Notes under the pieces: generated by a model | What the model saw: only the letters and a program-made list of their open reading frames with translations | Database searches by the model: none | Told to the model about the DNA's origin: nothing | Made by a program: the position numbers and the translations under genes | DNA from: Candidatus Parcubacteria bacterium | GTDB lineage: Bacteria; Patescibacteriota; Minisyncoccia; Phycocordibacterales; UBA918 | Direction of reading: 5' to 3' | Assembly (NCBI GenBank): GCA_046050355.1 | Contig: JBJOPW010000001.1 | Span: 67,858 to 131,857 of the forward strand | Length of the DNA stretch: 64,000 nucleotides | Shown here: positions 13,101 through 30,504 of the stretch, piece by piece | Layout of the letters: every line of letters starts with the position of its first letter | How positions within the stretch are numbered: position 1 is the stretch's first letter

Positions 13101-16100
13101 TACTCGTGGTATCACGTTGGCCGGCATTTGCGACAATAAAGGTTGGATTTGGGTCGGTAACACCCCCGTTTGCAACCGCAATATTGGTAGTGTTGTTACC
13201 GTTGGTGAGATTAGTGCTATCAAACATATTCCAGTCATCAGCACTATCGCCAACCGGTGTCCACACACTCACCGCACTACAGGTAGTCACGCGCGGTCCA
13301 AATTCAAGGCGATAGGCGGTTGCAACAGAAGCAGCCGCACCTTCGTTTGAAAGTGCCAGGCGTAGTCGGATTGGTGTATTGGCAGGGTGTTCTGTCAGGA
13401 GGACATTTTCTGACCCACCTGTAGCTGAAGTTGCTGTAGTTTCAGACCCATTGTCGTTACGCCAATGGTAACCATTTTGGGTAATCACTGGTCCTGAAAG
13501 CGTGGTGGTACCGTTAATTGCTATCGGTGTAGATGGTGATACCGATCCAGCCGAGACACCGATATCATTAGCGGGTGAAGAAATTTCTATTTGCACGGTG
13601 TCACCATTGCTAGCCGCAGCGGTAACATCAAACACCACATAAAGACAAACGGTCTGTGTGGTTGTTACGGTCACCGAGCCACTAAACGTTGATGTACCAT
13701 TTTGACTAGTAAAGCCATCAGTATCGGTGCTACCAAATTGCGTTTCTGATCCACCATACGATTCACTGGCACAATCGTACGGAGCGGTGGTGTCTAAATC
13801 ATATCTAAGCACTATGGTATCTAAGTGATTCTGTGCATCAACAGTGCCATTCTCAGCTATCATAATATTGGTAATATTTCGACTACTGGTGTTTTCACGA
13901 AAGACAAACTGGCCGCCGACATGTTGATTTGTAGATGGCACCAAGAGCGATGCTGTCTGACTACCTAAAGCGGTCACACTGACATCAGCGGCAATGGTGA
14001 CACTTGGGAATTGTGAATATACGGGTAAGGGGGTGCCAGCATTAGTAACACGAAAACAGTACGTTGTTCCCTCACTCGCTGAGGTTGATGCAACAATGGC
14101 ATATTCTAATTCAACAAAATTAGTGTTCGTTAGCGTTAAAGAGCCAGTTTGTGAAGAGACTTCGCGCAAGCCACCATTGGGGGTTAAAAATGTCGTGTTT
14201 TCGTCGGCCACACCACCAGTACCCACTGCAATATTAGTAGTATCTCCCCCTTCGGTAATATTTGCAGATAACGACATATTCCAGGCATCATCGGCTGCCC
14301 CGACATCAGTCCAACTCGTGGTGTCATTACAGGTCGGGGCTGCTACCCCATACTCCAAACGAAATGTTGATGCGGCGCTAGATAGTGAGCCTTCGTTTGA
14401 TACCTGCACGCGCAGGCGACGAGGGTTATTCGGCAACAGTGCAGCGATTGGTGTATCAGCTACTCCGCCGGTCGCAGATGAGGCGGTAGTTTCTGTACCG
14501 TTATCGTTACGCCAGTGGTAGTGCGTTTGGGTAAGTTCATCATTTTGAATCAGTGATGATGAAGCCATACGCACTGGAGATTCAGGCATTACCAGCACAC
14601 CACCAGTGACAATCACGTCATCATTAGGAGCTTCAACTGAAACTGACAACGTATCACCATCAAGGGCAGCTTCTAGTACATCGAGCACGACGTAGAAGCA
14701 CATGGCCTGTGTCGTGGTGATAGACTGTAAGCCAGAAAAACTCGAAACCCCATTAGCGCCAGAAAATCCATTAGTGTCTGTAAGTCCATACTGAGATTCA
14801 GTGCCACTATATGATTCACTGACACAGTCATAGGGGGCCGAAGTATCAAGGTCATAAAACAATTTCACATTGCTCACCGCAGTACTACCATTAATACTGC
14901 CACGCTCGTTAACGACTACAGCGGTCACATTCCGACTACTTTGGGTTTCTCGAATTGCAAACTTGCCGCCGACATAGACATTATTGGTACCGGCGGTGAT
15001 AACACTGGTCGCTGTACCGGTTGCATACAATTTTGTAATCGGTGCGATATCAGCAAGCGTATCACCAAAATAATCATCTGGTGCTGGGTCAGTCCAACTC
15101 ACATAGATGCGCTCATCACTCATGAGATTGATATCAAGACCACGATGGTCGCCAGCAGTCACACCCGAGACGGTTCGCTCAGGACTCCAGGTTGACATAG
15201 CAGAAGTTGAAGTCGCCCAGTAGATACCTCCGGTCGTGGCTGTCGCCGGTGTCGACCGTAGTACATAGGCAACATAAACAGTACTGGTATTGATATCTAA
15301 TCCAATCGCAACCGTATTAAGACCACGTGTTGTATTCGTAAATACTGCAGTTGTTCCAGTCCATGAACCGGATGAGAACTTAGCCGTACGAACATCATGA
15401 TCAAGTGTAGTATACGTGTCATGATCAGCACCATAGGCAAGATACACATCACCGGAGTTTGGGTCAACAACAGCCGCCATACTGGTATCGTACGTAGCAC
15501 TCTCAACGGCTGCCCCATCAATAGTAGTCCAACTGGCTGACCAAGCTGATCCATTCCATACACGTGACTGAATCACGTTTAAACTAATGTCACGGTTTAT
15601 AAGGAGTACATTGCCATTAATAAGTGGCAACAATATATTCCAATCATTATCAAGATCCATAAAACGCGCACCACCCGGCTCACTCCAGCCAGTAGTGGCG
15701 GTGCACCCCGTGTCAGTATCGCAACTCACCACAAAAGAATCAGCGGCATCTGAGATACCGATAAAAACTTCGTTACCAGCATTTTTTGTGACCGTGAGGT
15801 TGTTAGTACCCGATACGTAGGTGCCGGCCTGACTTGAGTTGGTACTCGCGTTCACTGGAGCAGTACCGAGGAGGAGAGTGTCGGTACTGGTATCAAGCGC
15901 ATTATAAAATACATGGTCGGGGTTTGAGGCCGTTTCCATTGTTGCTATATGAATCGTGCTCCCAAAGTCGCCGGGTGTCCACTGGTCATACCACACCGCA
16001 ATACTCGAACAGTCAGTTTGGGCATCTACAATCACTGGTGTATTCCAGACCGTACCACCGTTTGTAGTCTTACTATACACACAACTACCAGAGAGATCTC

Positions 16101-16335
16101 GGTAAAACTTGTACCCCACCTGATCAGAAGTGAACACCGTTTGGGAGCCACCGAAGAAAAATGAGTTGGCATCGGTACTCACCGTAGCATCAATGGTATT
16201 TTGGGCAGCTTCGGCCATAGTCGGCCAGGCCATATACTCCAAAAACGTGAAGTTGAGAAAAAACATCACAGCTAACATGATGCCAGCAATCAGTCGACGC
16301 CATCCATACCAAAAAAACGCTGGAAACCTCCGCAT
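10174..16335 (-). CDS. Giant secreted surface protein (2,053 aa): N-terminal anchor, WNGSAW-type repeats, repeated YxWRxDxG beta-sandwich modules, WxL-like C-terminal module
   Basis: Uninterrupted 6.2-kb ORF starting at an ATG. YHWRNDNG(T/S)ETTA occurs twice; also RWRFYDDAESE and YCFR(V/L)TN. C-terminus ...SYTTEIVYIAVPVY. Confidence 0.85.
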   Translation of the reverse strand: MRRFPAFFWYGWRRLIAGIMLAVMFFLNFTFLEYMAWPTMAEAAQNTIDATVSTDANSFFFGGSQTVFTSDQVGYKFYRDLSGSCVYSKTTNGGTVWNTPVIVDAQTDCSSIAVWYDQWTPGDFGSTIHIATMETASNPDHVFYNALDTSTDTLLLGTAPVNASTNSSQAGTYVSGTNNLTVTKNAGNEVFIGISDAADSFVVSCDTDTGCTATTGWSEPGGARFMDLDNDWNILLPLINGNVLLINRDISLNVIQSRVWNGSAWSASWTTIDGAAVESATYDTSMAAVVDPNSGDVYLAYGADHDTYTTLDHDVRTAKFSSGSWTGTTAVFTNTTRGLNTVAIGLDINTSTVYVAYVLRSTPATATTGGIYWATSTSAMSTWSPERTVSGVTAGDHRGLDINLMSDERIYVSWTDPAPDDYFGDTLADIAPITKLYATGTATSVITAGTNNVYVGGKFAIRETQSSRNVTAVVVNERGSINGSTAVSNVKLFYDLDTSAPYDCVSESYSGTESQYGLTDTNGFSGANGVSSFSGLQSITTTQAMCFYVVLDVLEAALDGDTLSVSVEAPNDDVIVTGGVLVMPESPVRMASSSLIQNDELTQTHYHWRNDNGTETTASSATGGVADTPIAALLPNNPRRLRVQVSNEGSLSSAASTFRLEYGVAAPTCNDTTSWTDVGAADDAWNMSLSANITEGGDTTNIAVGTGGVADENTTFLTPNGGLREVSSQTGSLTLTNTNFVELEYAIVASTSASEGTTYCFRVTNAGTPLPVYSQFPSVTIAADVSVTALGSQTASLLVPSTNQHVGGQFVFRENTSSRNITNIMIAENGTVDAQNHLDTIVLRYDLDTTAPYDCASESYGGSETQFGSTDTDGFTSQNGTSTFSGSVTVTTTQTVCLYVVFDVTAAASNGDTVQIEISSPANDIGVSAGSVSPSTPIAINGTTTLSGPVITQNGYHWRNDNGSETTATSATGGSENVLLTEHPANTPIRLRLALSNEGAAASVATAYRLEFGPRVTTCSAVSVWTPVGDSADDWNMFDSTNLTNGNNTTNIAVANGGVTDPNPTFIVANAGQRDTTSTTSALVMSTTEFAEYEFSITSTNITAYNTTYCFRLTNNGEPLTYSNYAELTTAPKRDFKVQRGTATIAGTSQTLTAGVDYTAPASTTTAFVRLTDTHNTGPGRTTAGGGAQNADDITAYISAANLPSNFTISRPPAATGNTRVNWEIVEFIGDAGTDNEMKVRGVGSVNMASAALIATGTALGTITDNTDVVVFITGIENRDVARNVYYAGQVTSSWSPTSTAPVFNRGAGGAIINVSYAVVEFTGINWQVQRSEHTYTAVGTVETESIPTTLNSLARSFIHTQKRMTAQGNVNNFGHEVWLSSIGAVSYRLEGAATAPSGHTSVAWIIENLQTSAGAMEVQRTNGTTNAGTEPVALSISIFSPIEATNNASIFANTRVVGANTTFPLPMAGARITSTSTYELWRSEASGEMTYRTEIVEWPVSGLAVRQNYYRFYVNNNALKPTDPWPVGVSDLGENNPITIADEPLGDGDLVRLRMTLRVANANLPAGLYDFKLQYGLRATSCSTVGTWSDLDTAAGSGIWRGYAATGTTNGTNLSTNPPTGGDLLISVADRAGSLVEENPAPANPYIVDPGEDVEYDWFIQHNGAISRNTYCFRMVRSDGTPLDGYFNYPQIRTAGYSPQTKRWRFYDDAESETPLSPLSGEIISPIEVQNGNEFTLRVTVGQRKNVVGQDIKFKLQYDESPTFTSPKDVVTQAACTATSTWCYVDGGGTDNATITTKVLTDANSCTGGTGSGCGTHNESPTYTTGYTHLAGASTEFAFYLRHAAARAGAVYYFRLYEVFEDAPVAPASGESYPSLVAETPKLTLSISGLPSGTTTAGVVTTVATTPATVTFGSIPIDTDAVAAHRLAVTTNATDGYRVLSFARQQLQNGYGTPIPSVTGTNAVPAAWAVGCITTASGCVGYHTTDATLTGGSTRFAPLDSYAGLHTDVAEVMYSPLPANDSHDIVYRVKVTGMQPAASYTTEIVYIAVPVY
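12990..15090 (-). repeat. Tandem in-frame duplication (~1.05 kb, ~350 aa per unit) inside the 2,053-aa gene
   Basis: The anchor sequence encoding YHWRNDNG sits at 14497-14520 and 13447-13470 (1,050 nt apart). The flanking protein segments align, for example LFYDLDTSAPYDCVSESYSG with LRYDLDTTAPYDCASESYGG. Confidence 0.75.
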
Positions 16336-16389: not shown

Positions 16390-17916
16390 CTACTCGACCA
16401 CAGGTATGTCTATAGGGGAAGCATCAGGTGTAAATGGAGTTACTACGAGGTCTGGAATGGCCGCCACAGGTTCTGATACAACTTCAGTTACCACGGTTGT
16501 TTCAGTGAGGTCAAGGGTGAGGCTCGTAGTGGTTGCAATCACCTCGGTACTAGTCGCGAGGTTGAGCTCTAAATCTGGTGGTGTACTCGAGGCATTACCG
16601 TCAGGATTTGCTGCTGCTTCAAGGCCATCTTCTTCGGTTGGTGACTTAGTTGATAGCAACGCTCGAGTCTCGCCAGTAGTATCTGGACTCGGAATCTCAT
16701 CTGGCAGTGGCGCCGGTTCAGCTTCAAAAGAGGTAATTTCACCGGTGACAAGATCGTATCCGCGAGTTTCGATGTCACCATTCTCCATCGCCGCATCGTA
16801 GACAAGGACCATACGTGGATTTGAAATAGTGCCACCGTTATCATCACGAATGGTCATGAAGGCTTTTGAGTTCAGGTCATATACCTCGATAGTTTTTTCG
16901 TTGTACTGGACTCGGTGCCATACCACCAAATTATTCCGTATTACCGGTGCGAGATTATGCTCACTTGTGTTCGTCAGCTGCGTAGCTGTCTCGCCGTCAT
17001 ATAGCATAATCTGCCAAGCATCATTATCCCAGTATTGCCAAACAATGATATTGTCGGCACGGAACGGCTCCATGTTGTTGGTGCTCGTATCGGTGAGCTG
17101 ACGCTCTTCACCTGAAGCCATATCATAGACAACAATTTGATAGCGCTCATCAACTAGACGGTGCCAAACGAGACTGTCGGAAGCTGGGTCATAGTATGGG
17201 GAGGCATCGTCAACCGTGTTGTAGGTAATCTGTTGGAGGCCGTCATTATTCTTGAGATAAATTTCAAGGTCACCATCACTATCGGGGAGCGAGAACAGGC
17301 CTTGTTCGTCAGCAGCTGGAACTGTCGTTGTCGCGAGTTGGCAGTAGAAAGAACCGTCCTCAACCGCGAGACAGTTGTCTTTACTGAACTGAATCATTTG
17401 GTCACTCTCCACGGTCAACGTTGGCGTGGTTGGATCAGTGCTGGTAGCGGTTGTCGTGCCAGTTTGTTCGGTCGATGTCGCAACAGGCAGGTTAGTTGTA
17501 TCGGTAGGTGGTTCTACTTCCCCGCTTGCAGGAACATCAAGAACACCGGCATCAGGCGGTACTGGTGTAGGATCTTCCTCTGTTGCTATTGGTGTATCAG
17601 GTGGTGGAGATACATCAGGCGATGGCTCGTCGGCCGGTGCTGTTGCTTCACCAGACACTACTTCTGCTGGCGATTCGGCTCGGGTAGAAAACTCTTGCTG
17701 GATAGTCGCCACCGCTTCATCGGTTATCGTAACAGGTAGATTTGGCGCCGGTTCAGGCGGCGACTCGTTTGCATACGCTCGCTCGACAGTTTGGAGTAAG
17801 AATGAACAAACCAGCACCACCACAAAGAGCCGTACTAGTGCACGTTCAAAGACAAATCGATACAACAGGGGTGTACCTGGTGGCGACGATGATCTATTGG
17901 CTGGTAATTGTTTCAT
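16390..17916 (-). CDS. Secreted protein with Pro/Thr/Glu-rich linker and repeated beta-strand (propeller-like) units
   Basis: N-terminal TM/signal. Repeats include LVWHRLVDERYQIVVYD, IIVWQYWDNDAWQIMLYD and LVVWHRVQYNEKTIEVYD. Confidence 0.5.
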   Translation of the reverse strand: MKQLPANRSSSPPGTPLLYRFVFERALVRLFVVVLVCSFLLQTVERAYANESPPEPAPNLPVTITDEAVATIQQEFSTRAESPAEVVSGEATAPADEPSPDVSPPPDTPIATEEDPTPVPPDAGVLDVPASGEVEPPTDTTNLPVATSTEQTGTTTATSTDPTTPTLTVESDQMIQFSKDNCLAVEDGSFYCQLATTTVPAADEQGLFSLPDSDGDLEIYLKNNDGLQQITYNTVDDASPYYDPASDSLVWHRLVDERYQIVVYDMASGEERQLTDTSTNNMEPFRADNIIVWQYWDNDAWQIMLYDGETATQLTNTSEHNLAPVIRNNLVVWHRVQYNEKTIEVYDLNSKAFMTIRDDNGGTISNPRMVLVYDAAMENGDIETRGYDLVTGEITSFEAEPAPLPDEIPSPDTTGETRALLSTKSPTEEDGLEAAANPDGNASSTPPDLELNLATSTEVIATTTSLTLDLTETTVVTEVVSEPVAAIPDLVVTPFTPDASPIDIPVVE

Positions 17917-18037: not shown

Positions 18038-18793
18038 TCAAGACTTCGATCGAAAATAATTAGCGAGAAGGATTGAAAAGTCTTTGAAGGTCATAGCCCC
18101 ATCATTATTAAAATCGTAGCGGTTGTTCTGCTTTACCCATTCCGCCATAAATATACTGATATCGTCAAGTGAGACTTTTCCATCAGCATTCACATCGCTG
18201 ACAAGGAGAACCACTGCTCCGGCTTCAAGTGTCCCATCCGTACTTTCGGCAATTTTAAGTCTTAACTGACTCTCTTCCCCGATTTTTGCGTTAATTTCGG
18301 TCCCCTTGCCATCACCTGCCAGTAGGTTGGCTTCGGTGGTTGAAAACACAATTTCCCCAGTAGCACGAGCTTTGGCTCTTATGGTGGCGATAAGGTGTTT
18401 ACCTACAAACCCTTTGCGGTATGTCCCACCTTCGAGTAAAACCGCTCCATTTTCAACTCGCGGCTCACTTGTCCAAAGCGTAATTACTGACTCACCGCGG
18501 TCAATACCAAGTACTTCAATTTTGTCTTCAGGATACGCAATGCTCAGTGAGACAGCATTGACCGGTGTGTTTGCAACTGCATAGACAGCGATAAAGAATG
18601 TCTCATCTGGAGCACTTTGTGATTGTTTGGTTTCAAGTATAATTGATGATTTTGAAGAACCAACTACTGAAGCGAAACTTGCTACGACCATGAGAGCGAA
18701 CAACCACGAAAACAGGTAGCGTACCGTTGTGGTTGATGTGCGGCTTCGCCGAGCGTGTATATAGGCTACAACTAGCTGCCATAGTTTGATCAT
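18038..18793 (-). CDS. Cohesin-like domain plus C-terminal dockerin (adaptor-scaffoldin-like), N-terminal anchor
   Basis: Cohesin-like FFIAVYAVANTPVNAVSLSIAYPEDKIEVLGID...LLAGDGKGTEI. Dockerin duplicated Ca-loop DVNADGKVSLDDISIF...DFNNDGAMTFKDFSILL. ATGA start/stop overlap with the upstream gene. Confidence 0.65.
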   Translation of the reverse strand: MIKLWQLVVAYIHARRSRTSTTTVRYLFSWLFALMVVASFASVVGSSKSSIILETKQSQSAPDETFFIAVYAVANTPVNAVSLSIAYPEDKIEVLGIDRGESVITLWTSEPRVENGAVLLEGGTYRKGFVGKHLIATIRAKARATGEIVFSTTEANLLAGDGKGTEINAKIGEESQLRLKIAESTDGTLEAGAVVLLVSDVNADGKVSLDDISIFMAEWVKQNNRYDFNNDGAMTFKDFSILLANYFRSKS

Positions 18794-19467
18794 AGTGATT
18801 GCAGTTCGCGTCTGGTTGTTTCAATTTGCTGCATGCGCACCGTCATATTGTTCTTGAGATCAGTGACGGACTTGAGCGTATTCATAATCTCTTCAGAGTC
18901 ACGACTCTTCCCTGCCAAAAGGGCTAAAATAATATCACCCTGCAACTCAACGAGTTGCGTGAAGTCCGCTGCCATAGTAAGTTCATCTTCAGCGATTCGT
19001 TGCCAAAGCGCTACACGATTTGTCTTCTCGTCTTCAGTTTCAAGAATGCGTGAGCGGAGCGTAATGTATTCATCATACACAGTCACTTCTCGTGCTAGTC
19101 GAGCTGCCATCACTGACTTTTTGTCGGCAAAATACCGACCACAGGCAAAAAACAGTCGGTCAAGCTCACTCAGTTCTGGCTTCGAAATTGAGGCAGATAA
19201 TTTGTCGAGTAGCACCTCAAAACGTTGACGTTCTGTTGGCTGACAGTCGACCACAATACGTTCGGTAATTTCATCAGCTTCATTGCGTTTGGTGAGGTCA
19301 GCTATCGTAGCCAAAACCAGTTCTTGTTCAGCTATATTTGCTTTAAGCGCTAGACTAGTTGAATCAAGTTTTTCACGAACAACTCTATTTGTGTAGATAG
19401 AAATTACCCACAAAAGGAGCCCGATACCAATAGCGAGTAGAGCTAGCTGGCGAGATGTTACATGCAT
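18790..19467 (-). CDS. Hypothetical membrane-anchored coiled-coil protein
   Basis: N-terminal TM LALLAIGIGLLLWVISIY followed by helical, charged sequence. No family recognised. Confidence 0.45.
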   Translation of the reverse strand: MHVTSRQLALLAIGIGLLLWVISIYTNRVVREKLDSTSLALKANIAEQELVLATIADLTKRNEADEITERIVVDCQPTERQRFEVLLDKLSASISKPELSELDRLFFACGRYFADKKSVMAARLAREVTVYDEYITLRSRILETEDEKTNRVALWQRIAEDELTMAADFTQLVELQGDIILALLAGKSRDSEEIMNTLKSVTDLKNNMTVRMQQIETTRRELQSL

Positions 19468-19477
19468 ACAGTAAGAA

Positions 19478-21193
19478 TTAGCGAGTTAAGGTGGTTACGT
19501 CTGATACTTCTTTTTGTACAATTTGCTCTGCTGATTTTAACACGGTTCTTATATCTGTAATAAGGGCACCTTCGGTCGCTGTCAATTTACCGGTTTTGCG
19601 GCTACGAACAATATCCGCTTCGTGTGCATGCAGCAGTTCTTCAATAACAATAAATTGGGCATGAAGCGCAGTACCAACTTCACTACTTTCACGGTTAAGG
19701 AGTACCCGGAAGCGGCGATACCGTGCCAAGAAGTAAAAACTGCCGAGGGTAGCCAGTACGAGCAGGGCAATCAGTGGAATAATGACCGAGAGCACATCAA
19801 TCAAGAATGAACCGATTCGTACGAGACCCATAGGTTGTACAACAAATTGGACGGGGTCAGAAATACCACTTTGCGCACCAAACTCATCATGTGCAGCAGC
19901 CGTGAGGGCATAGACGCCTTCAGTGAGAGCGCTGTTCGGGATAAAACGAAACGTACCTGTTTCGTCACTCTTTACCTCGTAGATAGCTGGCTCTTGTCCA
20001 GTCTTCGTGAGGGTTACGGCGACTGTAGCATTTGGTCTTGTGGTACCAAGGAATACTGGGATGACACCGGTACTGATCTCGGTTGGCACATCGCTAAAGC
20101 GTGGTGCTTCAAATGATTCAATCTCGAACGTAAAGGTTGAGACCGTGCTGTTGCCGGCGGCATCAACCACTTCTACCACCATTGTTTGGCGACCGGGAGT
20201 CAATTTCTCGAGTTTTATTTCATTTTTACCTTCTTCATTTTTGTACTCAACTGGTGCAGCGCCATTGAGTTGTACCCTAAAGACTTTAATTGGTGAGCCA
20301 TTGGTATCAGTAGTTGATGCTACGACAATTTGTGTCGGATTCGCCAGATTGCTATCGGGTTTGAGGCTCAACACCACATTTTGGGGAGCGTTAGTATCAA
20401 CCCCGAGACGATAGTGCGCTACCTTGCCCCACCCCTCGGCATTTTTGAATTGGATATGGAAATACGATACCCCTTCATCGAGATCAGCAAGGGTAATCTC
20501 TTTGATAGGACTATCATAGACTTTGGTTGGTATGGCAGTCGGAGATTCATCAAGTGCGGTTCGTACAGCGACTACATCTCCCGGTAGTGTCCAGCGGAGA
20601 ATAGCGGTCTTGTCTTTTGACCAGCCGGCTGGGTCGCCATGGGTATCGGAGGTTATCTTTGGAGCCGCTGGTGTATTGGCTGGTGGTACGTATTCAACAA
20701 TGGTTTCGGGGGCTGGGGTCTCAGTGGCAGCAGAGATGGTATACGCACCACTCCCCATACTCGAGAGCACATTGGTCCCGCGACCATCAGCCGCTAGAAC
20801 AGAGCCACTACCAAAGGTGACACGCGCTGCTCCAGATCCCAGGGTGCGGAAGGTGATGTTCATCACTGTTCCTGACCCACCAGTGTAGCCGGTCGGCGTA
20901 CCACCGCTAAAGTTAATCGTACCAGCACTATTAGAGTAGGTTGGTTCGGTGGTCCAGAGATTAAAGATTGAACTACTGCGGGAAACCGACACTACCTGAA
21001 GCGCTTTATTATCAAAATTAATCGTGCCATCAGCGGCATTAATGGCAGCTCCTTTAGTATCAACCGCCACGCGCACAGTAAAGGTACTGCCGCTGCCATA
21101 GACACCAGTAGCTGGTGACATATTGAGAGTGGCCGCTAGAGCGAATGAACTAGAACCAAAGAGCGCAAGTAGTATAAGGAGACGACTAAACAT
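19478..21193 (-). CDS. Cohesin-like surface protein with Ig-like domains, C-terminal TM and a ~100-aa cytoplasmic helical tail (paralogue of 56211-57755)
   Basis: ATLNMSPATGVYGSGSTFTVRVAVDT...LWTTEPTYSNSAGTINFSGG...VLAADGRGTNV. Start set to the ATG at 21193 (MFSRLLILLALFGSSSFALA), right after the upstream stop. Confidence 0.65.
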   Translation of the reverse strand: MFSRLLILLALFGSSSFALAATLNMSPATGVYGSGSTFTVRVAVDTKGAAINAADGTINFDNKALQVVSVSRSSSIFNLWTTEPTYSNSAGTINFSGGTPTGYTGGSGTVMNITFRTLGSGAARVTFGSGSVLAADGRGTNVLSSMGSGAYTISAATETPAPETIVEYVPPANTPAAPKITSDTHGDPAGWSKDKTAILRWTLPGDVVAVRTALDESPTAIPTKVYDSPIKEITLADLDEGVSYFHIQFKNAEGWGKVAHYRLGVDTNAPQNVVLSLKPDSNLANPTQIVVASTTDTNGSPIKVFRVQLNGAAPVEYKNEEGKNEIKLEKLTPGRQTMVVEVVDAAGNSTVSTFTFEIESFEAPRFSDVPTEISTGVIPVFLGTTRPNATVAVTLTKTGQEPAIYEVKSDETGTFRFIPNSALTEGVYALTAAAHDEFGAQSGISDPVQFVVQPMGLVRIGSFLIDVLSVIIPLIALLVLATLGSFYFLARYRRFRVLLNRESSEVGTALHAQFIVIEELLHAHEADIVRSRKTGKLTATEGALITDIRTVLKSAEQIVQKEVSDVTTLTR

Positions 21194-21194
21194 A

Positions 21195-22223
21195 TTAGTT
21201 AATTTCAGTGACCTCAGCCTCGGCACTCACCGCGGAAGCCTGCTTTTGGCGGCGGCGTCGACGCCAATACCAGACTCCAGCGAAACTGAAGAGGACAAGC
21301 GCTACTCCAGTGGCTGCAGCCACTGCCAGCGTTATTGGTGAAAAGCGACTGATATGAGCGTTTTGTGGGGCCAAAGTAGCAATGTATTCATTCCCCGCTT
21401 TATCAACGGCGCGCACGCGGATAGTACTCTTGAGTGACTGATCAGTGAGCACATATGGACTGCGTCCTTCCGTCCACACTGTTGTGGCCGCACCAAAGGT
21501 AAAGAGTCTCGTGTCCTCAACCGGTTCTTCGATTACTTCATAGTGACTCATGCCACTTTGTTTGTCGGTAGTGTTAAAGACAATATAGTACTTCTTTTCA
21601 AAAGCATAGTCGTCTTTCTCGAGGGTAATAGAAAATTCTTCGGGCGGGATATCATCATCTGCAACAACATCTCGCCACTCATCGATAATAGTAGACCCAA
21701 CAACTTGATTGAGCGTCAATTCTGCCCCGAGTGTTTGGAGCGCTGCTTCAGTCCCAAAACCATCATTCAAAAAGGCGCGTGTTTCTGGATTAAATGTCAC
21801 CGTTCCAAAGGGAGCGACCTCCCCACCACCAACGGTGAGACCGGGAGCACGAAATACAATCTGGAGTAGTGTATTAGTGAGTCTCGGATCACCATCAACA
21901 CGCCCACAATAGCCATTTGGAATACCGCCAGCAAATGAGATGGTGCGTGCATTTTTGTCAATCACTGGCTGTTCCACCCAAATTGGAAATATTGACTGGC
22001 CAATTGAAATATCAACCGGATTTATAGCCTCGTTGTAACTAATCACCCCATCAATAGCATTAATACATTCATCTTCAGCTTCGTTCGTATCTAGTCGCAC
22101 TGAGAGTGTCACTGAATCACCACGATTAAGTGTTGGTCGCGGCGGGTCAAGGTACAAGGTGGCTGCTGACACGGAATCAGCCACCAAAAACATACACAAA
22201 AAGAGAACGAGTCGGTAGACCAT
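21195..22223 (-). CDS. Cohesin-like surface protein with Ig-like domain and C-terminal TM anchor
   Basis: AATLYLDPPRPTLNRGDSVTLSVRLDT...IDGVISYNEAINPVDISIG...ISFAGGIPNGY. TM LAVAAATGVALVLFSFAGVWYW followed by RRRRRQ. Start set to the ATG at 22223 (MVYRLVLFLCMFLVADSVSA). Confidence 0.55.
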   Translation of the reverse strand: MVYRLVLFLCMFLVADSVSAATLYLDPPRPTLNRGDSVTLSVRLDTNEAEDECINAIDGVISYNEAINPVDISIGQSIFPIWVEQPVIDKNARTISFAGGIPNGYCGRVDGDPRLTNTLLQIVFRAPGLTVGGGEVAPFGTVTFNPETRAFLNDGFGTEAALQTLGAELTLNQVVGSTIIDEWRDVVADDDIPPEEFSITLEKDDYAFEKKYYIVFNTTDKQSGMSHYEVIEEPVEDTRLFTFGAATTVWTEGRSPYVLTDQSLKSTIRVRAVDKAGNEYIATLAPQNAHISRFSPITLAVAAATGVALVLFSFAGVWYWRRRRRQKQASAVSAEAEVTEIN

Positions 22224-22270
22224 ACTTGTAGTATACAGAATAGAATCATACAAAAACGGCTTTTTACACA

Positions 22271-22306
22271 AACAAAAACTCCCCGTGGTGGGGGAAGTTT
22301 TTGTTG
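22271..22306 (-). terminator. Intrinsic-terminator-like hairpin after the 402-aa surface-protein gene
   Basis: Minus strand: acaaaaacttcccc-caccac-ggggagtttttgt then ttgtgt. ~14-bp stem with one bulge and a U-rich 3' arm, 29 nt after the TAA stop. Confidence 0.5.
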
Positions 22307-22334
22307 TATTACTCCAAGCTTGGACCAATATTCT

Positions 22335-23489
22335 TTAGAACACTGGGGTTGCTACGTATGTCAGCGTAGCGTTGTAGTCGTTCCCCGCTTCCTGGAGCGG
22401 AGAAATTTCAACCTTGTAACCAACGCGGGTACGACCAATATTTGGTGTAACTCCGTCTGATGGTCCATTGTGTCGAAATACTTCAACCGGTGTGGTCGAG
22501 GCAGAAACAAAGCGCTGCCCGGTTCCTCCGGCATCAAATGGATCGGTGAGACCAGCGGTGAGTGAGGCGTCTTCTGTGGTTAGACCCCAGTGACCCCACG
22601 TATTCTCATTACTGATTGTCCCGGTTGGTGGATCCCACGCCACTGGCGTGTTAGTGTACGCACCATCAATAAATCCATCGATATCAGCACCCGTTGAAGA
22701 GAGCAACTGCTGATCAACTTCTACTGTTACCGCAAAGCCGTAACTCGCATTTGTTGACACAGACAATTGCTGAGCTGATGTCGTGGCTGAACCCTGTGTC
22801 AAAACTCCAAATGGAATTGAGGTAGCAGAGGTCGAGCCAGTAATTGCTTCTTGGTTAACGGTACCGGTAGCGACACCACTTACCGTAAAGGTAAAGCTCG
22901 TGTCAACAGCGGCTGTAACCACGACTGGTGAAATGATCGCTACTCGAGTAGACCCACTATCTACTGAACCAGCAGTGATGTCAATCTCGTATGAGCCGAC
23001 AGCAGGGTTGGTCAATTGAGCGTTACCAGTGGCACCAAAGGTGGCATTGGTTCCGATCTGAATAGTGGTAGTGCCATTAGCCGGTAATGAGGCACCATCG
23101 CCGGGACAGAACTGGAGCGTAATGGTGTTGGTAGTTGTTGAAAAACCAACTTCATCAGATCCTCCACATCCGTTCCCAACAGACAAATCTGTTCCATCAT
23201 CAGTGATATCTACATCGTCAAACGCGACTGCTCCAAGAGCGAAAGGCCCGTTAGAGAAATTGAGGACAATAGATTCACCGTTTGCTACGCCAGTAGGTGT
23301 AACAAAACTGATGGTGTGATTTGATGGCACACTCGGGGCTGAATCCGAGAGCGTATCACTTACTAATCTGACATTTGCGGCCTCCGCAAAGCGGAATGTT
23401 GGTAGACCCAATGACCATAACAAAATGGCAAGTCCAACAACAGAAGCCAGTGCTTGGAGTAGTCCGAACGTTGAATTCGTTCTACTCAT
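22335..23489 (-). CDS. Secreted surface protein (384 aa from the ATG at 23489) with WxL-like C-terminal module; candidate abundant surface subunit
   Basis: Signal MSRTNSTFGLLQALASVVGLAILLW. N-terminal motif SDTLSDSAPSVPSNHTISF. C-terminal half aligns with the 2,053-aa C-terminus (FG..L...L.V.TNA..G) and ends YNATLTYVATPVF. The ORF-track start at 23543 is a TTG. Confidence 0.7.
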   Translation of the reverse strand: MSRTNSTFGLLQALASVVGLAILLWSLGLPTFRFAEAANVRLVSDTLSDSAPSVPSNHTISFVTPTGVANGESIVLNFSNGPFALGAVAFDDVDITDDGTDLSVGNGCGGSDEVGFSTTTNTITLQFCPGDGASLPANGTTTIQIGTNATFGATGNAQLTNPAVGSYEIDITAGSVDSGSTRVAIISPVVVTAAVDTSFTFTVSGVATGTVNQEAITGSTSATSIPFGVLTQGSATTSAQQLSVSTNASYGFAVTVEVDQQLLSSTGADIDGFIDGAYTNTPVAWDPPTGTISNENTWGHWGLTTEDASLTAGLTDPFDAGGTGQRFVSASTTPVEVFRHNGPSDGVTPNIGRTRVGYKVEISPLQEAGNDYNATLTYVATPVF

Positions 23490-23500
23490 GACTCTACGTT

Positions 23501-23529
23501 GTATTAGCCAGGCGCTGCTGCGAGAGCAA
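23501..23529 (-). promoter_or_regulatory. Promoter-like TTGCTC-N17-TAATAC, 11 nt upstream of the ATG at 23489
   Basis: Minus strand: TTGCTCtcgcagcagcgcctggcTAATACaacgtagagtcATG. Confidence 0.35.
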
Positions 23530-23790
23530 AAGCAATGCAGCAACGTGACTCGCGACCGTCATCGTTCACAGTGTGGTCTCCACCCCACTTCTGTATAGAC
23601 GAGCGACAGGCATACTAATGCTGTAACAGTGGCTGTTCTGTCCTAGCATTCCATTGTGGTGGGAGCTAGCAGTATCATTAAATAGATACCTCCAAACATT
23701 AGTACTCATTCATTGTAGCTTGCGCGTGTCAGCAAAAGAGAAACTTATACACAAAAAACAATCTCAAGTTTACCAACTATACAGACGATG

Positions 23791-23819
23791 TTAGAAATTT
23801 TTATACAAAATGATATAGT
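23791..23819 (+). promoter_or_regulatory. Promoter TTAGAA-N17-TATAGT, 6 nt upstream of the HD-gene ATG (leaderless geometry)
   Basis: TTAGAAatttttatacaaaatgaTATAGTatatcaATG. No SD. Confidence 0.45.
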
Positions 23820-23825
23820 ATATCA

Positions 23826-24419
23826 ATGCCAGATTTGGATTCACTCCTTGAGTTTACACGCCTGATGTCAAAGCTTTCAACTACTGAGCGTTTTGTTAAC
23901 AAAATCGGTACTAATACGCGTGAGAATTTCTCAGAACACTGCACACAACTTGCTTTTACTGCTTGGTACCTGATTGAAAAACATAAAATGTCGCTGGCTA
24001 TAGAGAAAGTTCTACAATACGCTCTCATACACGACATTGTGGAAACGTATACCGGCGACTTTCCCACCCATTTACCTAACTGTGACCGACAGGAAAAAGA
24101 ACGCCGAGAACGTGAAGCCTTTGCATGTATCAAACAAGATTTTCCCGACGCTACAAGTTTATGGTTACAATACGCGCAATATGAACAAAAGATCGATGCC
24201 GAAAGTAAGTTCGTTTACGCACTCGATAAACTACTACCAGGACTTAACATTTATTTAGACTCAGGCAAAGCCTGGGCTGAGAGGGATCCGGAGAATAACA
24301 CTTGGAGTTTCGATGATCTATCAAAACGGGTAGCACACGATCAGTTAGTTTCTCAGCTATGGGAAGAAATTCGGACTCGAATCTATACAGAACATCCAGA
24401 GTTTTTCTCCCAGCCGTAA
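23826..24419 (+). CDS. HD-domain phosphohydrolase (YfbR-like 5'-deoxynucleotidase family)
   Basis: RENFSEHCTQLAFTAWYL...ALIHDIVETYTGDFP (H...HD...D metal-binding pattern). Confidence 0.75.
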   Translation: MPDLDSLLEFTRLMSKLSTTERFVNKIGTNTRENFSEHCTQLAFTAWYLIEKHKMSLAIEKVLQYALIHDIVETYTGDFPTHLPNCDRQEKERREREAFACIKQDFPDATSLWLQYAQYEQKIDAESKFVYALDKLLPGLNIYLDSGKAWAERDPENNTWSFDDLSKRVAHDQLVSQLWEEIRTRIYTEHPEFFSQP

Positions 24420-24471
24420 AAAAATGTAACATATACTGTCGTCAGTAAAGAGTTCGCCAAATGACCCTAGA

Positions 24472-24549
24472 TTCGAGGCGTGCGAGGAAATTGTTGTGAG
24501 CCGTACTGGCTGTACGGTGAACTGCAATTTACCGAAGCACAACAAAGAA
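24472..24549 (-). repeat. 3'-flank element copy L2 (hairpin CCGTAC-agcca-GTACGG)
   Basis: The box (+ strand caacaaag, 24540-24547) ends 23 nt after the TAG stop at 24571. Hairpin at 24501-24517. Confidence 0.65.
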
Positions 24550-24570
24550 GATAGGGTTAGTTGGTGGACT

Positions 24571-25677
24571 CTACCCGGTCCAGTTGAAGAGGAGGATTGA
24601 GAAGTCTTCAAGTCCAACCTTCCCATTACTATTGATATCCGCCGGCGGGTTTGAGTCACCGCCATTAGTACTCCACCAGAAAATGAGAATAGAAAAGTCG
24701 GTTAGATTAACCTTACCATCACGACTGAGGTCAGATGGCGAGCTGGGTGCGCCATCGACGCCTAAAAGCAGCTGCACGACACTACTATAACCACTTTGGG
24801 TCAGTAGTGGTGGTGTGCCAGTAATAGAGCGAACTTTGATTGGATAGGTGGCATTACGGAGACTCGCCGTATTGAGCGTATAGCTGTAACGACCACTAGT
24901 GTCACTGGTCGTTCGTTCGGTGCGAAGACTACTGTTCCCTACCTGGATTTCGATCGCAGCACTCGGGACTGCCTGTCCAGAAATCGTAACTGTTCCGCCA
25001 GGACTGACTTTAGTATTTGATAAGGCTAAGGTCGGCGGCAACAAAAGGCCACTGACATTTGTTACGGCGCCTTGAGTCACATCAAAGGTACTATTGAGCG
25101 TGATAGAGCGTACCCCCGTCGAGTCATTCGCCCACACACCCATGGTAGCGGTTCCTGGCGACGCTTTGGTCGAAAATTCAAAACGACCGGTACTATTAGC
25201 TCGTACGGAACCGACAGACTTGGTATCAAGAAGAAAATTAACTTGCTGATTTGGATACGCAATACCAGTAATACTGATTGACGAATCACCAAGATCGCGG
25301 GTACCACCGCCACCTCCTCCACCGCCAGATGATCCACCGCCGCCAGAACCAGCCGGTTCTATTTGACAGGTAGCCGAACAAAAATCACCACCGGTGTTAT
25401 TCGCATCGTCACACTCTTCTGCATAAGTAGTCTGCAAAATACCATCACCGCAGTATGGTCCATAGTCACAGACAGCATTGCATTGTCGCCCAGCAATGGT
25501 GGTACTGTAGAGACCAATTTCACCAGGCACATCGCACTGTTCCCCGACATCGATGAGTGCGTTCCCGCAGATACTCAAATCAATAGTGGTTGTTGCTGTT
25601 GAAATAGTGACAGCGAGTACTTCGTGTGGCATAACACCAAGCGAAGCGACGAAGAGGAGGAGAGCAGCAAGGCGCAT
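24571..25677 (-). CDS. Secreted protein: Cys-rich repeats (Myxococcus cysteine-rich-repeat-like), Gly linker, two Ig-like domains, C-terminal dockerin
   Basis: CGNALIDVGEQCD...YCGDGILQTTYAEECDDANNTGGDFCSATCQIE; GSGGGGSSGGGGGGGG. Dockerin DLSRDGKVNLTDFSILIFWW...DINSNGKVGLEDFSILLFNW. Confidence 0.7.
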   Translation of the reverse strand: MRLAALLLFVASLGVMPHEVLAVTISTATTTIDLSICGNALIDVGEQCDVPGEIGLYSTTIAGRQCNAVCDYGPYCGDGILQTTYAEECDDANNTGGDFCSATCQIEPAGSGGGGSSGGGGGGGGTRDLGDSSISITGIAYPNQQVNFLLDTKSVGSVRANSTGRFEFSTKASPGTATMGVWANDSTGVRSITLNSTFDVTQGAVTNVSGLLLPPTLALSNTKVSPGGTVTISGQAVPSAAIEIQVGNSSLRTERTTSDTSGRYSYTLNTASLRNATYPIKVRSITGTPPLLTQSGYSSVVQLLLGVDGAPSSPSDLSRDGKVNLTDFSILIFWWSTNGGDSNPPADINSNGKVGLEDFSILLFNWTG

Positions 25678-25682
25678 AACAA

Positions 25683-26630
25683 CTACGTTAAACGAGAACG
25701 ACGGTTATGAATAAAGAATAAGATGACAATAAGTACTGCGAAGATTGGCAGCAGGATCGATAGCTTGTGTGCTATTGATAGTCCCATAAAGCCGTAACCA
25801 GCGACCTGTAGCGTGCCATATGGCAATATACTCAAGTTGAGTTCACCCTCTTGTTTGACATCCTCGCCATTTTTAATGGTATACCGCGCGATATAGCTAC
25901 CAGCCGGTAACCGGGTCGGGAGTGAGGCACTAATTTCTTCTATCGCGTAGGGAGCGATTTTTTTGAGACGACCCGTATGGTGGGTTTCCTCGAGTAATAC
26001 GGCGCCAGCGCGATCATAAATACGAAACTCAACATCTGACGGAGCAACATCAATGTTACCGGTGTTCTCAATCAACATCGAAAAATTAATCTTGCCAGGG
26101 AAATACAACCAACCAACTTTCTTTCCTTCATTGAGATCACTGACAGTAATCTTACGGACGCGGAAATCTTCGATGACTTTATCAATGACTGATAGATCGA
26201 CATCAACTTGAGCACCCAGAGAAATGCTTACGACACCCTCAGCGACCTGATCATCAGCTGGCAGCGTACGGATACGAATCTTGCCGGTATAGTCTGCAAA
26301 ATCTGCCTCAGCTGGAACCTTGATACGTACTGTCATGGGCACTTTTTGTTGTCCACGTGGCAAGGCGATACTTTGACCTTCAACAATCTCTATCCAATCC
26401 TGAATCTCTGGTGCGTCAATTGTAATTTCGGCTTTGAGATTGTCACTTGGGTTACCACGAACCAGGAGAATCTGCTGTTCGTAGGTTGAGTTGCGTGTCA
26501 GGCTGGTGTTCCGAACATACGGCGGGGTAATACCAAAACTAGCGTAACTTAAGGCTGGCCAAAAAGCCAAAGTTGCGAGCACACACAAAACAAAAGAACG
26601 AAGCAAAAACGTTGGCAAAATTACCTTCAT
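25683..26630 (-). CDS. Two-beta-sandwich surface protein with C-terminal TM anchor (DUF916/DUF3324-like), third paralogue
   Basis: Signal MKVILPTFLLRSFVLCVLATLAFWPALSYA; QQKVPMTVRIKVPAEADFADYTGKIRI; MLIENTGNIDVAPSDVEFRIYD; TM LSILLPIFAVLIVILFFI. Start set to the ATG at 26630. Confidence 0.55.
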   Translation of the reverse strand: MKVILPTFLLRSFVLCVLATLAFWPALSYASFGITPPYVRNTSLTRNSTYEQQILLVRGNPSDNLKAEITIDAPEIQDWIEIVEGQSIALPRGQQKVPMTVRIKVPAEADFADYTGKIRIRTLPADDQVAEGVVSISLGAQVDVDLSVIDKVIEDFRVRKITVSDLNEGKKVGWLYFPGKINFSMLIENTGNIDVAPSDVEFRIYDRAGAVLLEETHHTGRLKKIAPYAIEEISASLPTRLPAGSYIARYTIKNGEDVKQEGELNLSILPYGTLQVAGYGFMGLSIAHKLSILLPIFAVLIVILFFIHNRRSRLT

Positions 26631-26702: not shown

Positions 26703-26722
26703 TTGTTGTATAGAGTGATGGT

Positions 26723-28600
26723 TTACCAACTTAATGGATTTGAGATTGCACCAGTGAAAGTGTTTTGTCCGGTGTATGATCCAGCGAGGGTGATCGTACC
26801 TGGTACCGCAATACCCCAGTAGGTTGTACCTGATGTTGGTGTCGAGGTCGCAGTTGGTTTTGGAATCTGAATCTGTAACGTTGCCGGTGACGTAGTTGGT
26901 TGAAGCGCTGCACCAGAGGCATAGGCAACCGCAGAAGTAGCATACCGCTGCTCACCTTGTGGAATTGTCGACGTGGCAGAAACTGGGCAAGGGTTAGTGG
27001 TACTAAAGGTCGTACACATAGACTCACCACCAAGGAGTTGATTAAGACCAGTGTTACCAAGGACTCGTAGTGATGACGATGAAGTCAAGTTTGGCATGTT
27101 TGTCCCCGGCTCAAGCTGATCGTACGCAATGGTACTCGTCAGGAGATCAATGGCCACGAGACTCAAGAGTTCTACCGGACTGGTGGTAGTCGCCATGGTA
27201 CCAGTGGCATTATCATCATCGACACCAGCTACACCAGCACTCCAAGCCTGCGTATCAAATGGTGTTCCAGAAACAGTTGGATCAGCAATGAACCAGAGTG
27301 GGAAGGAACATGAGTAACTGATCGTATCGTCAGTGTTGCCGGTACACGATGTTGTGGAAGCTGTACATGAAAGGTTCCAAACTGAAGCAGCTACTCCACT
27401 TGGATAACAGTTGTTTGCATTGTAAGCTCCAGCTGATCCATCACAAGTTGTTGTTCCAACCGCACTACGGAAGATAGAGACCACCGAACGCTGGATTTCA
27501 TCAGCCGCACCGCCACCAACCGCATCACAACTGTTAGCATCAGCCACCACAAAATCAAGCGTAAAACCTGTTGTTTGTGAACCCGGCACTGTAAGCACTA
27601 TATCAAGTCCACCATTAAGAGAAATGGTACCACCGGCCACTGTTGGTGCGACGTTGCTGACTTCAAAGGTAACGTTTGTACCTTGTGCACCACCTGATGC
27701 TTCGTGACCGTGCTCATCATAAAGATACGCAAATGCGTTGTAGTTAGTGTCCTGAAGAATAGTAGCCATTACTCGCGAGGTGGTGGCGTTAGCAAACGCA
27801 ATCGAGAGTGATGATGAAGCAACAGTATCACCGGCGCCACAACTGTTCGTACTGGTACTATATGAAGCCGAACCACAAACTACCAGGTAAAGTGCGTCAT
27901 CAGTATCTACAACGTCTGGGTCAGTAGAGGTTGATCTAAAGAGTAGTGTACCGCCTGGATTAACTGGACCATCATTACTAAACCCAGTGAAAACTGGTCG
28001 ACGATTCACATTAAATGGTGACGAGTTCGTCGCATTTGTACCCTGTGAGAAAGTGGTACTACAACGGGGGTTTACCGGATCATCGTCACACACCCAGGCG
28101 TACCAGTCGTTTGATTCAGCAAAGGGCGCAACTTCTACGGTCGTGGTGGCAGCACGGGCTTCAGTGCCACTTGGCGTGCCCGTAGAAACCGCCCAGCGTG
28201 TACCAGCACTACAGACAGGAGCCGCAGTACCTAAGGTGGTTGTCGACTGTTGAGCAGTTGGGGTGGCGTTTGTACTACACACAATGAGGAAGTATGGTGC
28301 ACCGTTGGCATCGCTTGCTGTTCCGACCCAAGCTACTTGATCACCTGAGTTCGTTGGCGAGGTTGAAGATGAGCTGATTAACTCACGACCCTCTTGTCCA
28401 GCCACCCAGGTTGGCGGCGTGTTAAGTACGGTCAACGTGGTCGTTGCAGTACTGGTCGCTTCGGCCTTTTCAAGCTCAGTTTTACCAATGTTAAGAATAA
28501 AGATGAAGGTAAAAATGAGCAACCCTGATAATGCTGATAATACGGTGATTTTCCCAGCGGTCTCTACATACCGTGGAAAGTTATTTTTGTTGTACAACAT
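26723..28600 (-). CDS. Secreted surface protein (625 aa), Thr/Ser-rich with Cys pairs; C-terminal module shared with the 7,456-aa protein
   Basis: N-terminal anchor ITVLSALSGLLIFTFIFIL. The C-terminus IAYDQLEPG...LGNTG...IPKPT...TYWGIAVPG...SYTGQNTFTGAISNPLSW parallels INYGSLAPQ...ANAGN...LSKPT...IFWGIEVPFG...GINVFTPVSP. Confidence 0.7.
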   Translation of the reverse strand: MLYNKNNFPRYVETAGKITVLSALSGLLIFTFIFILNIGKTELEKAEATSTATTTLTVLNTPPTWVAGQEGRELISSSSTSPTNSGDQVAWVGTASDANGAPYFLIVCSTNATPTAQQSTTTLGTAAPVCSAGTRWAVSTGTPSGTEARAATTTVEVAPFAESNDWYAWVCDDDPVNPRCSTTFSQGTNATNSSPFNVNRRPVFTGFSNDGPVNPGGTLLFRSTSTDPDVVDTDDALYLVVCGSASYSTSTNSCGAGDTVASSSLSIAFANATTSRVMATILQDTNYNAFAYLYDEHGHEASGGAQGTNVTFEVSNVAPTVAGGTISLNGGLDIVLTVPGSQTTGFTLDFVVADANSCDAVGGGAADEIQRSVVSIFRSAVGTTTCDGSAGAYNANNCYPSGVAASVWNLSCTASTTSCTGNTDDTISYSCSFPLWFIADPTVSGTPFDTQAWSAGVAGVDDDNATGTMATTTSPVELLSLVAIDLLTSTIAYDQLEPGTNMPNLTSSSSLRVLGNTGLNQLLGGESMCTTFSTTNPCPVSATSTIPQGEQRYATSAVAYASGAALQPTTSPATLQIQIPKPTATSTPTSGTTYWGIAVPGTITLAGSYTGQNTFTGAISNPLSW

Positions 28601-30440: not shown

Positions 30441-30446
30441 AGTACT

Positions 30447-30460: not shown

Positions 30461-30504
30461 ACTACTTTTCGTAAACATTAGATAACCCCCATGTCAAAAT
30501 GAAT

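Follow-up and report, generated by a model that had tools for sequence, protein, structure and literature searches.

Cohesin and dockerin genes as a possible coupling module of a conserved surface-fibre/adhesin super-locus in Paceibacteria

What do cohesin and dockerin modules hold together at the surface of an uncultured, ultra-small bacterium from the candidate phyla radiation (CPR)? The CPR, or Patescibacteria, accounts for a very large and mostly uncultured share of bacterial diversity, the cultivated members being attached to other cells, and we know of no attachment mechanism for Paceibacteria. The question was raised by positions 18038-25677 of a 64 kb stretch of DNA, called the window here, from a metagenome-assembled genome (MAG) of Candidatus Parcubacteria bacterium. 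Six genes lie there on the minus strand and one, an HD-domain gene, on the plus strand; the original prediction read the cohesin and dockerin genes among them, together with relatives elsewhere in the window, as an anchor-adaptor-cargo assembly for surface decoration or adhesion. That interpretation was supported in part and was too narrow: the genes are the core of a conserved super-locus, which is akin to the CPR Pam pilus and the WxL clusters of Firmicutes in its logic and, to some degree, in its sequences. We give an even chance (a probability of about 0.5) to the reading that the cohesin and dockerin genes are the coupling module of this Paceibacteria surface-fibre/adhesin super-locus.

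Genes are named after the protein length in the open reading frame (ORF) lists, e.g. g571, g343 and g251. The gene starts used were identical to the NCBI gene calls of the source MAG (RLZZ360_85..101), which give shorter proteins for g402 (384 aa), g656 (637 aa) and g348 (315 aa). The six ORFs on which the original prediction was built were all present on the minus strand with unchanged coordinates (Table 1).

The cohesin and dockerin modules are genuine homologues of the Pfam families, as judged by direct matches, profile homology and the matches of orthologues. At gathering scores of 24.1 bits for Cohesin (PF00963) and 22.9 bits for Dockerin_1 (PF00404), the cohesin cut-off was passed by g571 (35.7 bits, model positions 12-126 of 139) and g514 (41.7 bits, model positions 9-139 of 139), and the dockerin cut-off by g656 (32.5 bits). 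Dockerin_1 stayed just under the cut-off in g251 (22.8 bits) and g368 (22.4 bits), i.e. 0.1-0.5 bit short. For g343 and g251 of this genome no Pfam cohesin match was obtained; PF00963 was matched directly by 6/28 g343 orthologues and 9/26 g251 orthologues, and profile-profile comparison with hhalign revealed the g343 family to be homologous to the g571 family (100 %, E 2.9e-40) and the g251 family to the g571-family cohesin (99.4 %, E 2e-21). Dockerin_1 was matched by 24/26 g251 orthologues, which bears out the predicted fusion of a cohesin to a dockerin in this protein. Two DxNxDGxxxxxD loops are visible in g251, g368 and g656 alike, so that the double Ca-loop ending foreseen for g368 and g656 was recovered, and the dockerins of the window recognised one another with custom hidden Markov model (HMM) scores of 87-95 bits. 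When HMMs built from the window's own domains were run against all six-frame ORFs of the 64 kb, exactly four cohesins and three dockerins were found, each cohesin protein carrying a single cohesin, and neither giant protein (g7456, g2053) contained a cohesin or a dockerin.

The cohesin proteins g571, g343 and g514 are membrane-anchored paralogues, as had been proposed, with a C-terminal transmembrane (TM) helix in each. g514 and g571 share 33 % identity over 400 aa (E 2e-60), and their cohesins alone 51 %. In all three, the TM helix is followed by an Arg/Lys-rich stretch, which implies that the tail is cytoplasmic. The long tails expected for two of them were found in g571 and g514, at ~80 aa rather than ~100 aa, and that of g343 is ~25 aa long. 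At least 871 homologues of g571, mostly full length (570-595 aa), were found in Paceibacteria, Kaiserbacteria and Parcubacteria (CPR). W..P and DG.GT motifs (LWTxEP ... AADGxGT) are invariant in all four cohesin paralogues; to our knowledge they are not a feature of cellulosomal cohesins, and they may mark a binding site or a metal site.

On the dockerin side, the modules of g368 and g656 are ~85 % identical, as counted from the sequences, and the C-terminal ~240 aa overall 40 %. A dockerin so much better conserved than the rest of the two proteins suggests a conserved protein partner and, with the cohesins of g571 and g514 likewise closer to each other than the whole proteins, would fit a shared specificity. 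The best available evidence of who this partner is comes from gene order, as dockerin and cohesin-TM genes travel together. Related loci were compared in 34 species-level genomes for the main module and in 26 metagenome loci for the second module. The main-module order, fn3-ABC ATPase-MacB/FtsX-g625-g348-g368-g402-g343-g571-g225-g251-g508-g2053-g328(-g569), was near-invariant in ~30 of the 34 genomes (Paceibacteria/Kaiserbacteria/Nomurabacteria), where the contig reaches, at 45-90 % identity. The second order, (MgtE-ABC)-g656-HSP20-g514-giant, was fixed in the 26 loci, and one contig (L043 + L067) carries both modules, as does the window. Distant lineages (L029, L033, L034, L061-L073) keep a reduced core in which a dockerin protein stands beside one or more cohesin-TM genes, either adjoining g343 and g571 or in the form dockerin protein-HSP20-cohesin/TM protein. 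In the window, positions 7566-60627 (roughly 53 kb) lie on the minus strand except for the HD gene; from this one-strand layout and the synteny it follows that they form a single super-locus. It includes the giant adhesin-like genes g2053 and g7456, whose closeness to the cohesin and dockerin genes had been recognised before.

What the module may couple is suggested by the head of g656. The cargo heads had been described as a Cys-rich domain in g368 and a relative of the 402-aa protein in g656, and both descriptions held: g368 gave matches to DUF4215 (Pfam) and to a myxo cysteine-rich repeat (NCBIfam), and the g656 head is homologous to the N-domain and linker of g402 (hhalign 96.5 %, E 7e-10). 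The corresponding stretches read RVAIISPVVVTAAVDT in g402 and FLIALVDQVGVAPVDTT in g656. After the linker, g656 continues with an ordinary immunoglobulin (Ig)-like domain, a Gly/Ser spacer, two Big_6-type Ig domains and the dockerin; according to hhalign, it is without the conserved C-terminal half of the g402 C-domain (the GHWG/TLTYVATPxF part). In the g402 family, the linker 'RVAIxDxVTVTASVDT' and the C-terminal motifs, a conserved 'HWGL' and the terminal 'TLTYVATPxF', are among the most conserved parts. Residues 197-384 of g402 correspond to residues 1882-2053 of g2053 (hhalign 97.7 %, E 2e-12, with a BLASTP match also), and in g2053 hhalign revealed the C-domain only, with no g402-type N-domain or recognisable linker.

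These pieces recall the Pam pili. The only curated family matched by g402 was NF058581 (CPR_Pam_pilin_C, NCBIfam), which derives from a June 2026 preprint on the CPR Pam pili of Ca. Mycosynbacter amalyticus (bioRxiv 10.64898/2026.03.03.709456); it was matched by 15/20 orthologues with a best E of 1.3e-7, all below the cut-off. In that preprint, cryo-electron microscopy (cryo-EM) structures of the PamA/PamB pili of a Saccharimonadia bacterium show an N-terminal beta-sandwich and a linker strand that each pilin donates to its neighbour's truncated Ig-like C-domain; the linker and C-terminal motifs are among the most conserved parts, an acceptor-only subunit is proposed at the tip, and the accessory set consists of an RbmA-like anchor and PapD/FimC-like chaperones, each with a TM helix at its C-terminus. 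By comparison, g402 would be a distant homologue of the CPR Pam pilins, and placing it in the Pam family is plausible, if below the threshold. In donor-strand terms, g656 would be able to donate and unable to accept, and g2053 would be able to accept, being without a recognisable g402-type donor linker. An AF2 model of g402, built from a 62-sequence alignment (pLDDT 74.7), showed the N-sandwich (41-185) at pLDDT ~90, the linker (186-198) at low confidence and a patchy C-domain (199-384) at 45-85, a pattern to be expected of a domain that needs a donated strand.

Membrane-anchored PapD/FimC/RbmA-like partners with a C-terminal TM helix, as in Pam, are present with g348, g328 and g569. The three are paralogues (g328 vs. 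g569, E 4e-22; hhalign to the g348 family 98.1 %). The AF2 model of g348 (pLDDT 77.5) revealed two tandem beta-sandwiches and a TM helix, with WxLIP of E. faecium bound to a long WxL protein (9i25_C) as the top Foldseek match (E 4e-8, TM-scores ~0.3), followed by V. cholerae RbmA (7e-8) and FimC/DraB/Caf1M (~1e-5). A search of solved structures with the g348 sequence profile found nothing. In g569, WxLIP_PGBD scored 23.1 bits at a cut-off of 27.3.

Taken as a mechanism, g402 would polymerise by handing its linker strand to the C-domain of the subunit before it, g2053 would cap the distal tip as a giant acceptor-only adhesin subunit, and the donor-only g656 would end the fibre at its base. The dockerin of g656, reaching out on a long spacer and binding in a Ca-dependent manner, would then dock the fibre to a membrane socket through the socket's cohesin, the socket being g514 or else g571/g343. 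g368 would be docked likewise and may serve the g625/g7456 pair. g251 would add an adaptor level or a second specificity, or be tethered to the membrane itself, and the WxLIP-like g348, g328 and g569 would be membrane-anchored chaperones or anchors of subunits. A possible task of the MacB-type transporter is to extract envelope components or to energise them. The cohesin-dockerin pair would thus be the cell-anchoring joint where there is no outer membrane and no sortase in the locus. The complete picture, in which a donor-only, dockerin-tailed g656 ends a Pam-like pilus tipped by a giant adhesin and is plugged into a TM cohesin socket whose tail, with HSP20, could couple the fibre inward, all of it conserved across the class Paceibacteria, is tentative, and we would sooner doubt it than build on it. 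If true, pili would here be anchored by a principle other than those of ushers, sortases and type IV platforms.

Against the systems already described, the locus shows likenesses and differences. It shares with Pam the CPR background, a proposed acceptor-only subunit at the tip, two-domain beta accessory proteins with a C-terminal TM helix and the lack of usher and sortase. It differs from Pam in the sub-threshold sequence match, in a 'tip' that is a 2053-aa giant, in a putative donor-only subunit with a dockerin and in four co-conserved cohesin proteins; moreover, Pam homologues are most prevalent in Saccharimonadia and Microgenomatia, and Paceibacteria are not among these lineages (10.64898/2026.03.03.709456). 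The preprint makes no mention of cohesin, dockerin, Paceibacteria, ABC/FtsX or giant proteins. With chaperone-usher (Pap/Fim) pili, the locus has in common the proposed donor-strand complementation, the order of tip adhesin, shaft and terminator, and the match of PapD/FimC/Caf1M to g348; unlike there, an usher and an outer membrane are lacking, the chaperone-like proteins are tied to the membrane, and the terminator would be held by cohesin and dockerin instead of an usher.

In Enterococcus, Lactobacillus and Listeria, WxL clusters encode a small and a large protein with a common C-terminal domain alongside a WxLIP protein (DUF916-DUF3324-TM; PMC10599100). The small/giant pairing occurs twice here (g402/g2053 and g625/g7456, with BLASTP E 9e-14 over the last ~290 aa of the latter pair), and partners with a signal peptide, two Ig-like domains and a C-terminal TM helix are likewise present, g348 having WxLIP as its best structural match and g569 a weak WxLIP_PGBD match. 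In contrast, Pfam scans revealed no WxL domain in g402, g2053, g625 or g7456, the WxLIP_PGBD match is below the cut-off, and WxL proteins attach to peptidoglycan by non-covalent binding, with no polymerisation known for them. No mention of cohesin or dockerin was found in the abstract and outline of PMC10599100, the WxL literature not having been searched for either.

As for cohesin-dockerin systems (Clostridia, Ruminococcus, Archaeoglobus fulgidus), the modules are Pfam homologues with duplicated Ca-loops and cell-bound anchoring proteins, and g251, with both modules, resembles an adaptor scaffoldin. This likeness, already noted in the original prediction, stands for the domain content; a 'TVRYAFP' motif conserved ahead of the hydrophobic segment implies that g251 may itself be membrane-tethered instead of being a soluble adaptor, and an AxA-like site after the segment in the orthologue alignment may allow cleavage. 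Unlike in a cellulosome, there is one cohesin per protein and no multi-cohesin scaffoldin, and no glycoside hydrolase, carbohydrate-binding module or other enzyme cargo was found in the scanned ORFs, which comprised most large ORFs of the window and both giants; the predicted lack of recognisable polysaccharide-degrading enzymes was thus confirmed. Anchoring is by a C-terminal TM helix with a cytoplasmic tail and not by SLH or sortase, and the cohesins, in contrast to cellulosomal and non-cellulosomal ones, are very divergent and set in a fibre/adhesin locus. Judged from the sequences, the system of the window is not a cellulosome; its mode of action would resemble that of a non-cellulosomal cohesin-dockerin anchor and probably that of a fibre of the Pam/chaperone-usher type. 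The literature yielded no account of either module for Parcubacteria or for Pam loci, and only passing mentions for the CPR; one such passing note, on Saccharibacteria, reports a dockerin-domain protein to be essential in Southlakia (PMC10633639).

Several results weigh against the coupling-module reading. The match of g402 of the window to NF058581 reached 24 bits at a cut-off of 55 and covers model positions 3-39 of 148 (~37 residues). Fold searches with the g402 model returned only generic tandem-Ig pilin/adhesin matches, with no Pam entry among the PDB matches listed. A relationship of g625 to g402 was rejected (hhalign 4.8 %), and the link between g368 and g625 consists solely of a short Thr-rich strand after the signal peptide that is common to their orthologues ([AS]TT[TS][LIV]x[LIV]), which is weak evidence. 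Four cohesins face three dockerins in the window, and several pairings are conceivable. Among solved structures, the g571-type cohesin-only profile had no significant match, the best scaffoldin being at E 0.44; the full-length g571 profile found only SiiE and ColH Ig domains, and the g251 and g343 profiles only weak scaffoldin matches (E 0.03-0.07). As no solved cohesin was matched significantly by profile, the cohesin fold is assigned by the Pfam model alone. Finally, the base anchor of Pam is a TM-anchored RbmA-like protein, a role that g348, g328 or g569 could fill here, which would free the dockerin proteins for something else.

That something else could be plain display, close to the original prediction: the membrane cohesins would show g368 and g656, directly or via g251, as free adhesins or decorations, the proximity of fibre genes would reflect a shared envelope regulon, and the g656 head would be a recycled binding domain. 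The domain content fits, dockerin and cohesin genes are repeatedly adjacent, and the g368 head is a Cys-rich DUF4215 repeat without pilin features; functional non-cellulosomal cohesin-dockerin pairs exist, too, e.g. in Archaeoglobus fulgidus (PMC9705933, PMC12484212). What plain display leaves unexplained is that the pilin linker has been kept as the most conserved stretch of the g656 family, that a matching acceptor domain has been kept in g2053, and that the gene order, including pilin and chaperone-like genes, is frozen across ~30 species. A head made of pilin N-domain and linker without a complete C-domain points to a fibre joint and not to displayed cargo; the surface-decoration interpretation therefore stands as regards modules and anchors and fails to cover g656. 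All in all, we consider plain display rather unlikely.

Two further explanations do without one half of the proposed joint or without the fibre. The near full-length coverage of the Pfam Cohesin model above its cut-off, the adjacency of cohesin-TM and dockerin genes even in the most reduced, distant loci, and a dockerin conserved much better than the rest of its protein all speak against cohesin-like domains that bind peptidoglycan, host glycans or another protein of the locus, with dockerins that are EF-hand-like modules for attachment to cell wall or host or for Ca-dependent folding. Such ligands would agree with the great distance of the window cohesins from all solved ones, with the invariant W..P and DG.GT motifs and with the surplus of cohesins over dockerins, and we hold them to be improbable. 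An S-layer-like coat, in which g402 and g625 would be lattice subunits and cohesin and dockerin would tether the layer to the membrane, would suit the g402 and g625 genes, which look abundantly expressed from the hairpins after their stops, and a weak, sub-threshold match of g348 to a putative S-layer protein model (NCBIfam). Surface layers on ultra-small groundwater bacteria are described in cryo-EM reports. The sole specific family match, however, is to Pam pilins, and small/giant pairs with a common terminal domain together with WxLIP/PapD-like partners match fibre/adhesin systems, which makes the coat the least probable of the explanations considered.

Under the coupling-module reading, the locus unites three things that have been described separately, namely cohesin-dockerin coupling, Pam-type donor-strand fibres and giant surface proteins. 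Pam-type fibres are so far known from one preprint on Saccharimonadia (10.64898/2026.03.03.709456); if the proposed joint is real, Pam-like pili would be extended to Paceibacteria, cohesin-dockerin would gain a structural, non-enzymatic role, and small recombinant domains (four cohesins, three dockerins and one linker strand) would make the host-attachment machinery of uncultured bacteria directly testable. The interest of the locus lies in its deep conservation, the unexpected combination and this easy testability. The super-locus is among the best conserved large gene clusters of its group, yet in this genome the annotation is hypothetical throughout, all these locus proteins (RLZZ360_85 to _101) being labelled 'hypothetical protein' by NCBI.

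Table 1. Features of the window, ordered by position.
Feature	Coordinates	Strand	Description
IS200-like (Y1 transposase)	1214-1849	+	At the window edge; adjoins tRNA-guanine transglycosylase
g569	7566-9275	-	WxLIP-like; two TM-like segments and C-terminal LytR_C domain (Pfam)
g328	9181-10167	-	WxLIP-like; one TM segment
g2053	10174..16335	-	Giant; last ~170 aa = g402 C-terminal (acceptor) domain; proposed tip adhesin
g508	16390..17916	-	TM-anchored; TolB-like beta-propeller repeats (NCBIfam, sub-threshold); conserved locus member by synteny
g251	18038..18793	-	'TVRYAFP' motif, TM or signal segment, cohesin, compact dockerin with loops 27 aa apart
g225	18790..19467	-	N-terminal TM and ~190 aa of no assigned function; between g571 and g251
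g571	19478..21193	-	Signal peptide, cohesin, middle domain, Ig-like domains incl. Big_13 (51 bits), TM, ~80-aa cytoplasmic tail
g343	21195..22223	-	Signal peptide, divergent cohesin with conserved Cys pair, Ig-like domain, TM, short basic tail
g402 (384 aa)	22335..23489	-	Pam-pilin-like: N-terminal beta-sandwich, conserved linker strand, incompletely modelled C-terminal Ig-like domain
HD-domain gene (YfbR-like 5'-deoxynucleotidase)	23826-24419	+	Between g368 and g402
g368	24571..25677	-	Signal peptide, Cys-rich DUF4215 repeat, Gly-rich linker, two Ig domains (Big_7), C-terminal dockerin
g348	25683..26630	-	Signal peptide, two tandem beta-sandwiches, C-terminal TM; candidate PamC/D/R-type chaperone or anchor
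g625	26723..28600	-	Cys-rich, secreted or anchored; C-terminal module common to g7456
MacB_PCD+FtsX permease	29232-30461	-	Pfam and NCBIfam matches
ABC ATPase, MacB/Lol-type	30578-31900	-	Pfam and NCBIfam matches
g7456	33751..56121	-	Giant surface protein; last ~290 aa common to g625
g514	56211..57755	-	Signal peptide, cohesin, middle domain, Ig-like domain, TM 413-433, ~80-aa cytoplasmic tail
HSP20/alpha-crystallin (153 aa)	57781..58242	-	Pfam HSP20, 41 bits
g656 (637 aa)	58657..60570	-	Signal peptide, pilin-like N-domain and linker strand, Ig-like domain, Gly/Ser-rich spacer, Big_6/Big_13, dockerin

Among the neighbouring genes, the HSP20 gene always lies between a dockerin-protein gene and a cohesin-TM gene, at 35-38 % identity in distant lineages; this position is kept in the 26 close loci and in several distant ones (L035-L060, L062, L063, L068, L069, L071, L072). 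Possible tasks of the HSP20 protein are an action on the cohesin protein's cytoplasmic tail or the holding of subunits before their secretion. The MacB-type transporter keeps the same position in related loci, and its ABC ATPase has ~200 extra C-terminal residues with no family match that are conserved with the locus. The stop of g225 overlaps the start of g251, and the place of g225 is conserved.

Two candidates were rejected in the course of the comparison. The HD gene, the sole plus-strand gene of the super-locus, was missing from 34/34 related loci, including relatives with ~72-96 % identity in their locus proteins; it is hence no member of the system and seems to be an insertion specific to this strain. 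A common origin of the cohesin-TM and WxLIP-like proteins, which are alike in their layout of two beta domains and a TM helix, was not supported by hhalign (13 % and 44 %), the similarity being confined to the signal peptide and the first strand.

Apart from DUF2341 and a single Rha78A-like Ig domain, Pfam matched nothing in the giant g7456. In most of the related loci that reach beyond g514, the N-terminus of g7456 is conserved immediately downstream of g514. The small counterpart g625 matched no family of NCBIfam or Pfam. In a distant relative (L033:22-5983), the g625-like gene is duplicated, with one copy fused into an ORF of at least 1355 aa that extends up to the end of the locus sequence, which implies that small and giant forms of one module interconvert.

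Terminator-like hairpins with T-runs were seen on the minus strand at 22279-22296, after the g402 stop, and at 26666-26704, after the g625 stop (17-bp hairpin), each within the over-extended upstream part of the next ORF. g402 and g625 are thus both small proteins that share terminal domains with giants and have a hairpin after the stop. Such hairpins are usual after genes for abundant subunits, and those found here may reflect attenuation after abundant subunit genes. The N-termini of g251 ('TVRYAFP'), g625 ('TAGKITV') and g402 ('LWSLGLP..RFAEAA') are unusually conserved before and within the hydrophobic segment, which hints that they are recognised by a factor devoted to sorting or processing; this could be the MacB-type transporter.

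Several contigs with a Paceibacteria-type locus (L003, L004, L017, L025, L032 and others) are titled 'uncultured Candidatus Saccharibacteria', 'Gammaproteobacteria' or 'Azotimanducaceae'; these titles are probably automatic mislabels, or the contigs were mis-binned.

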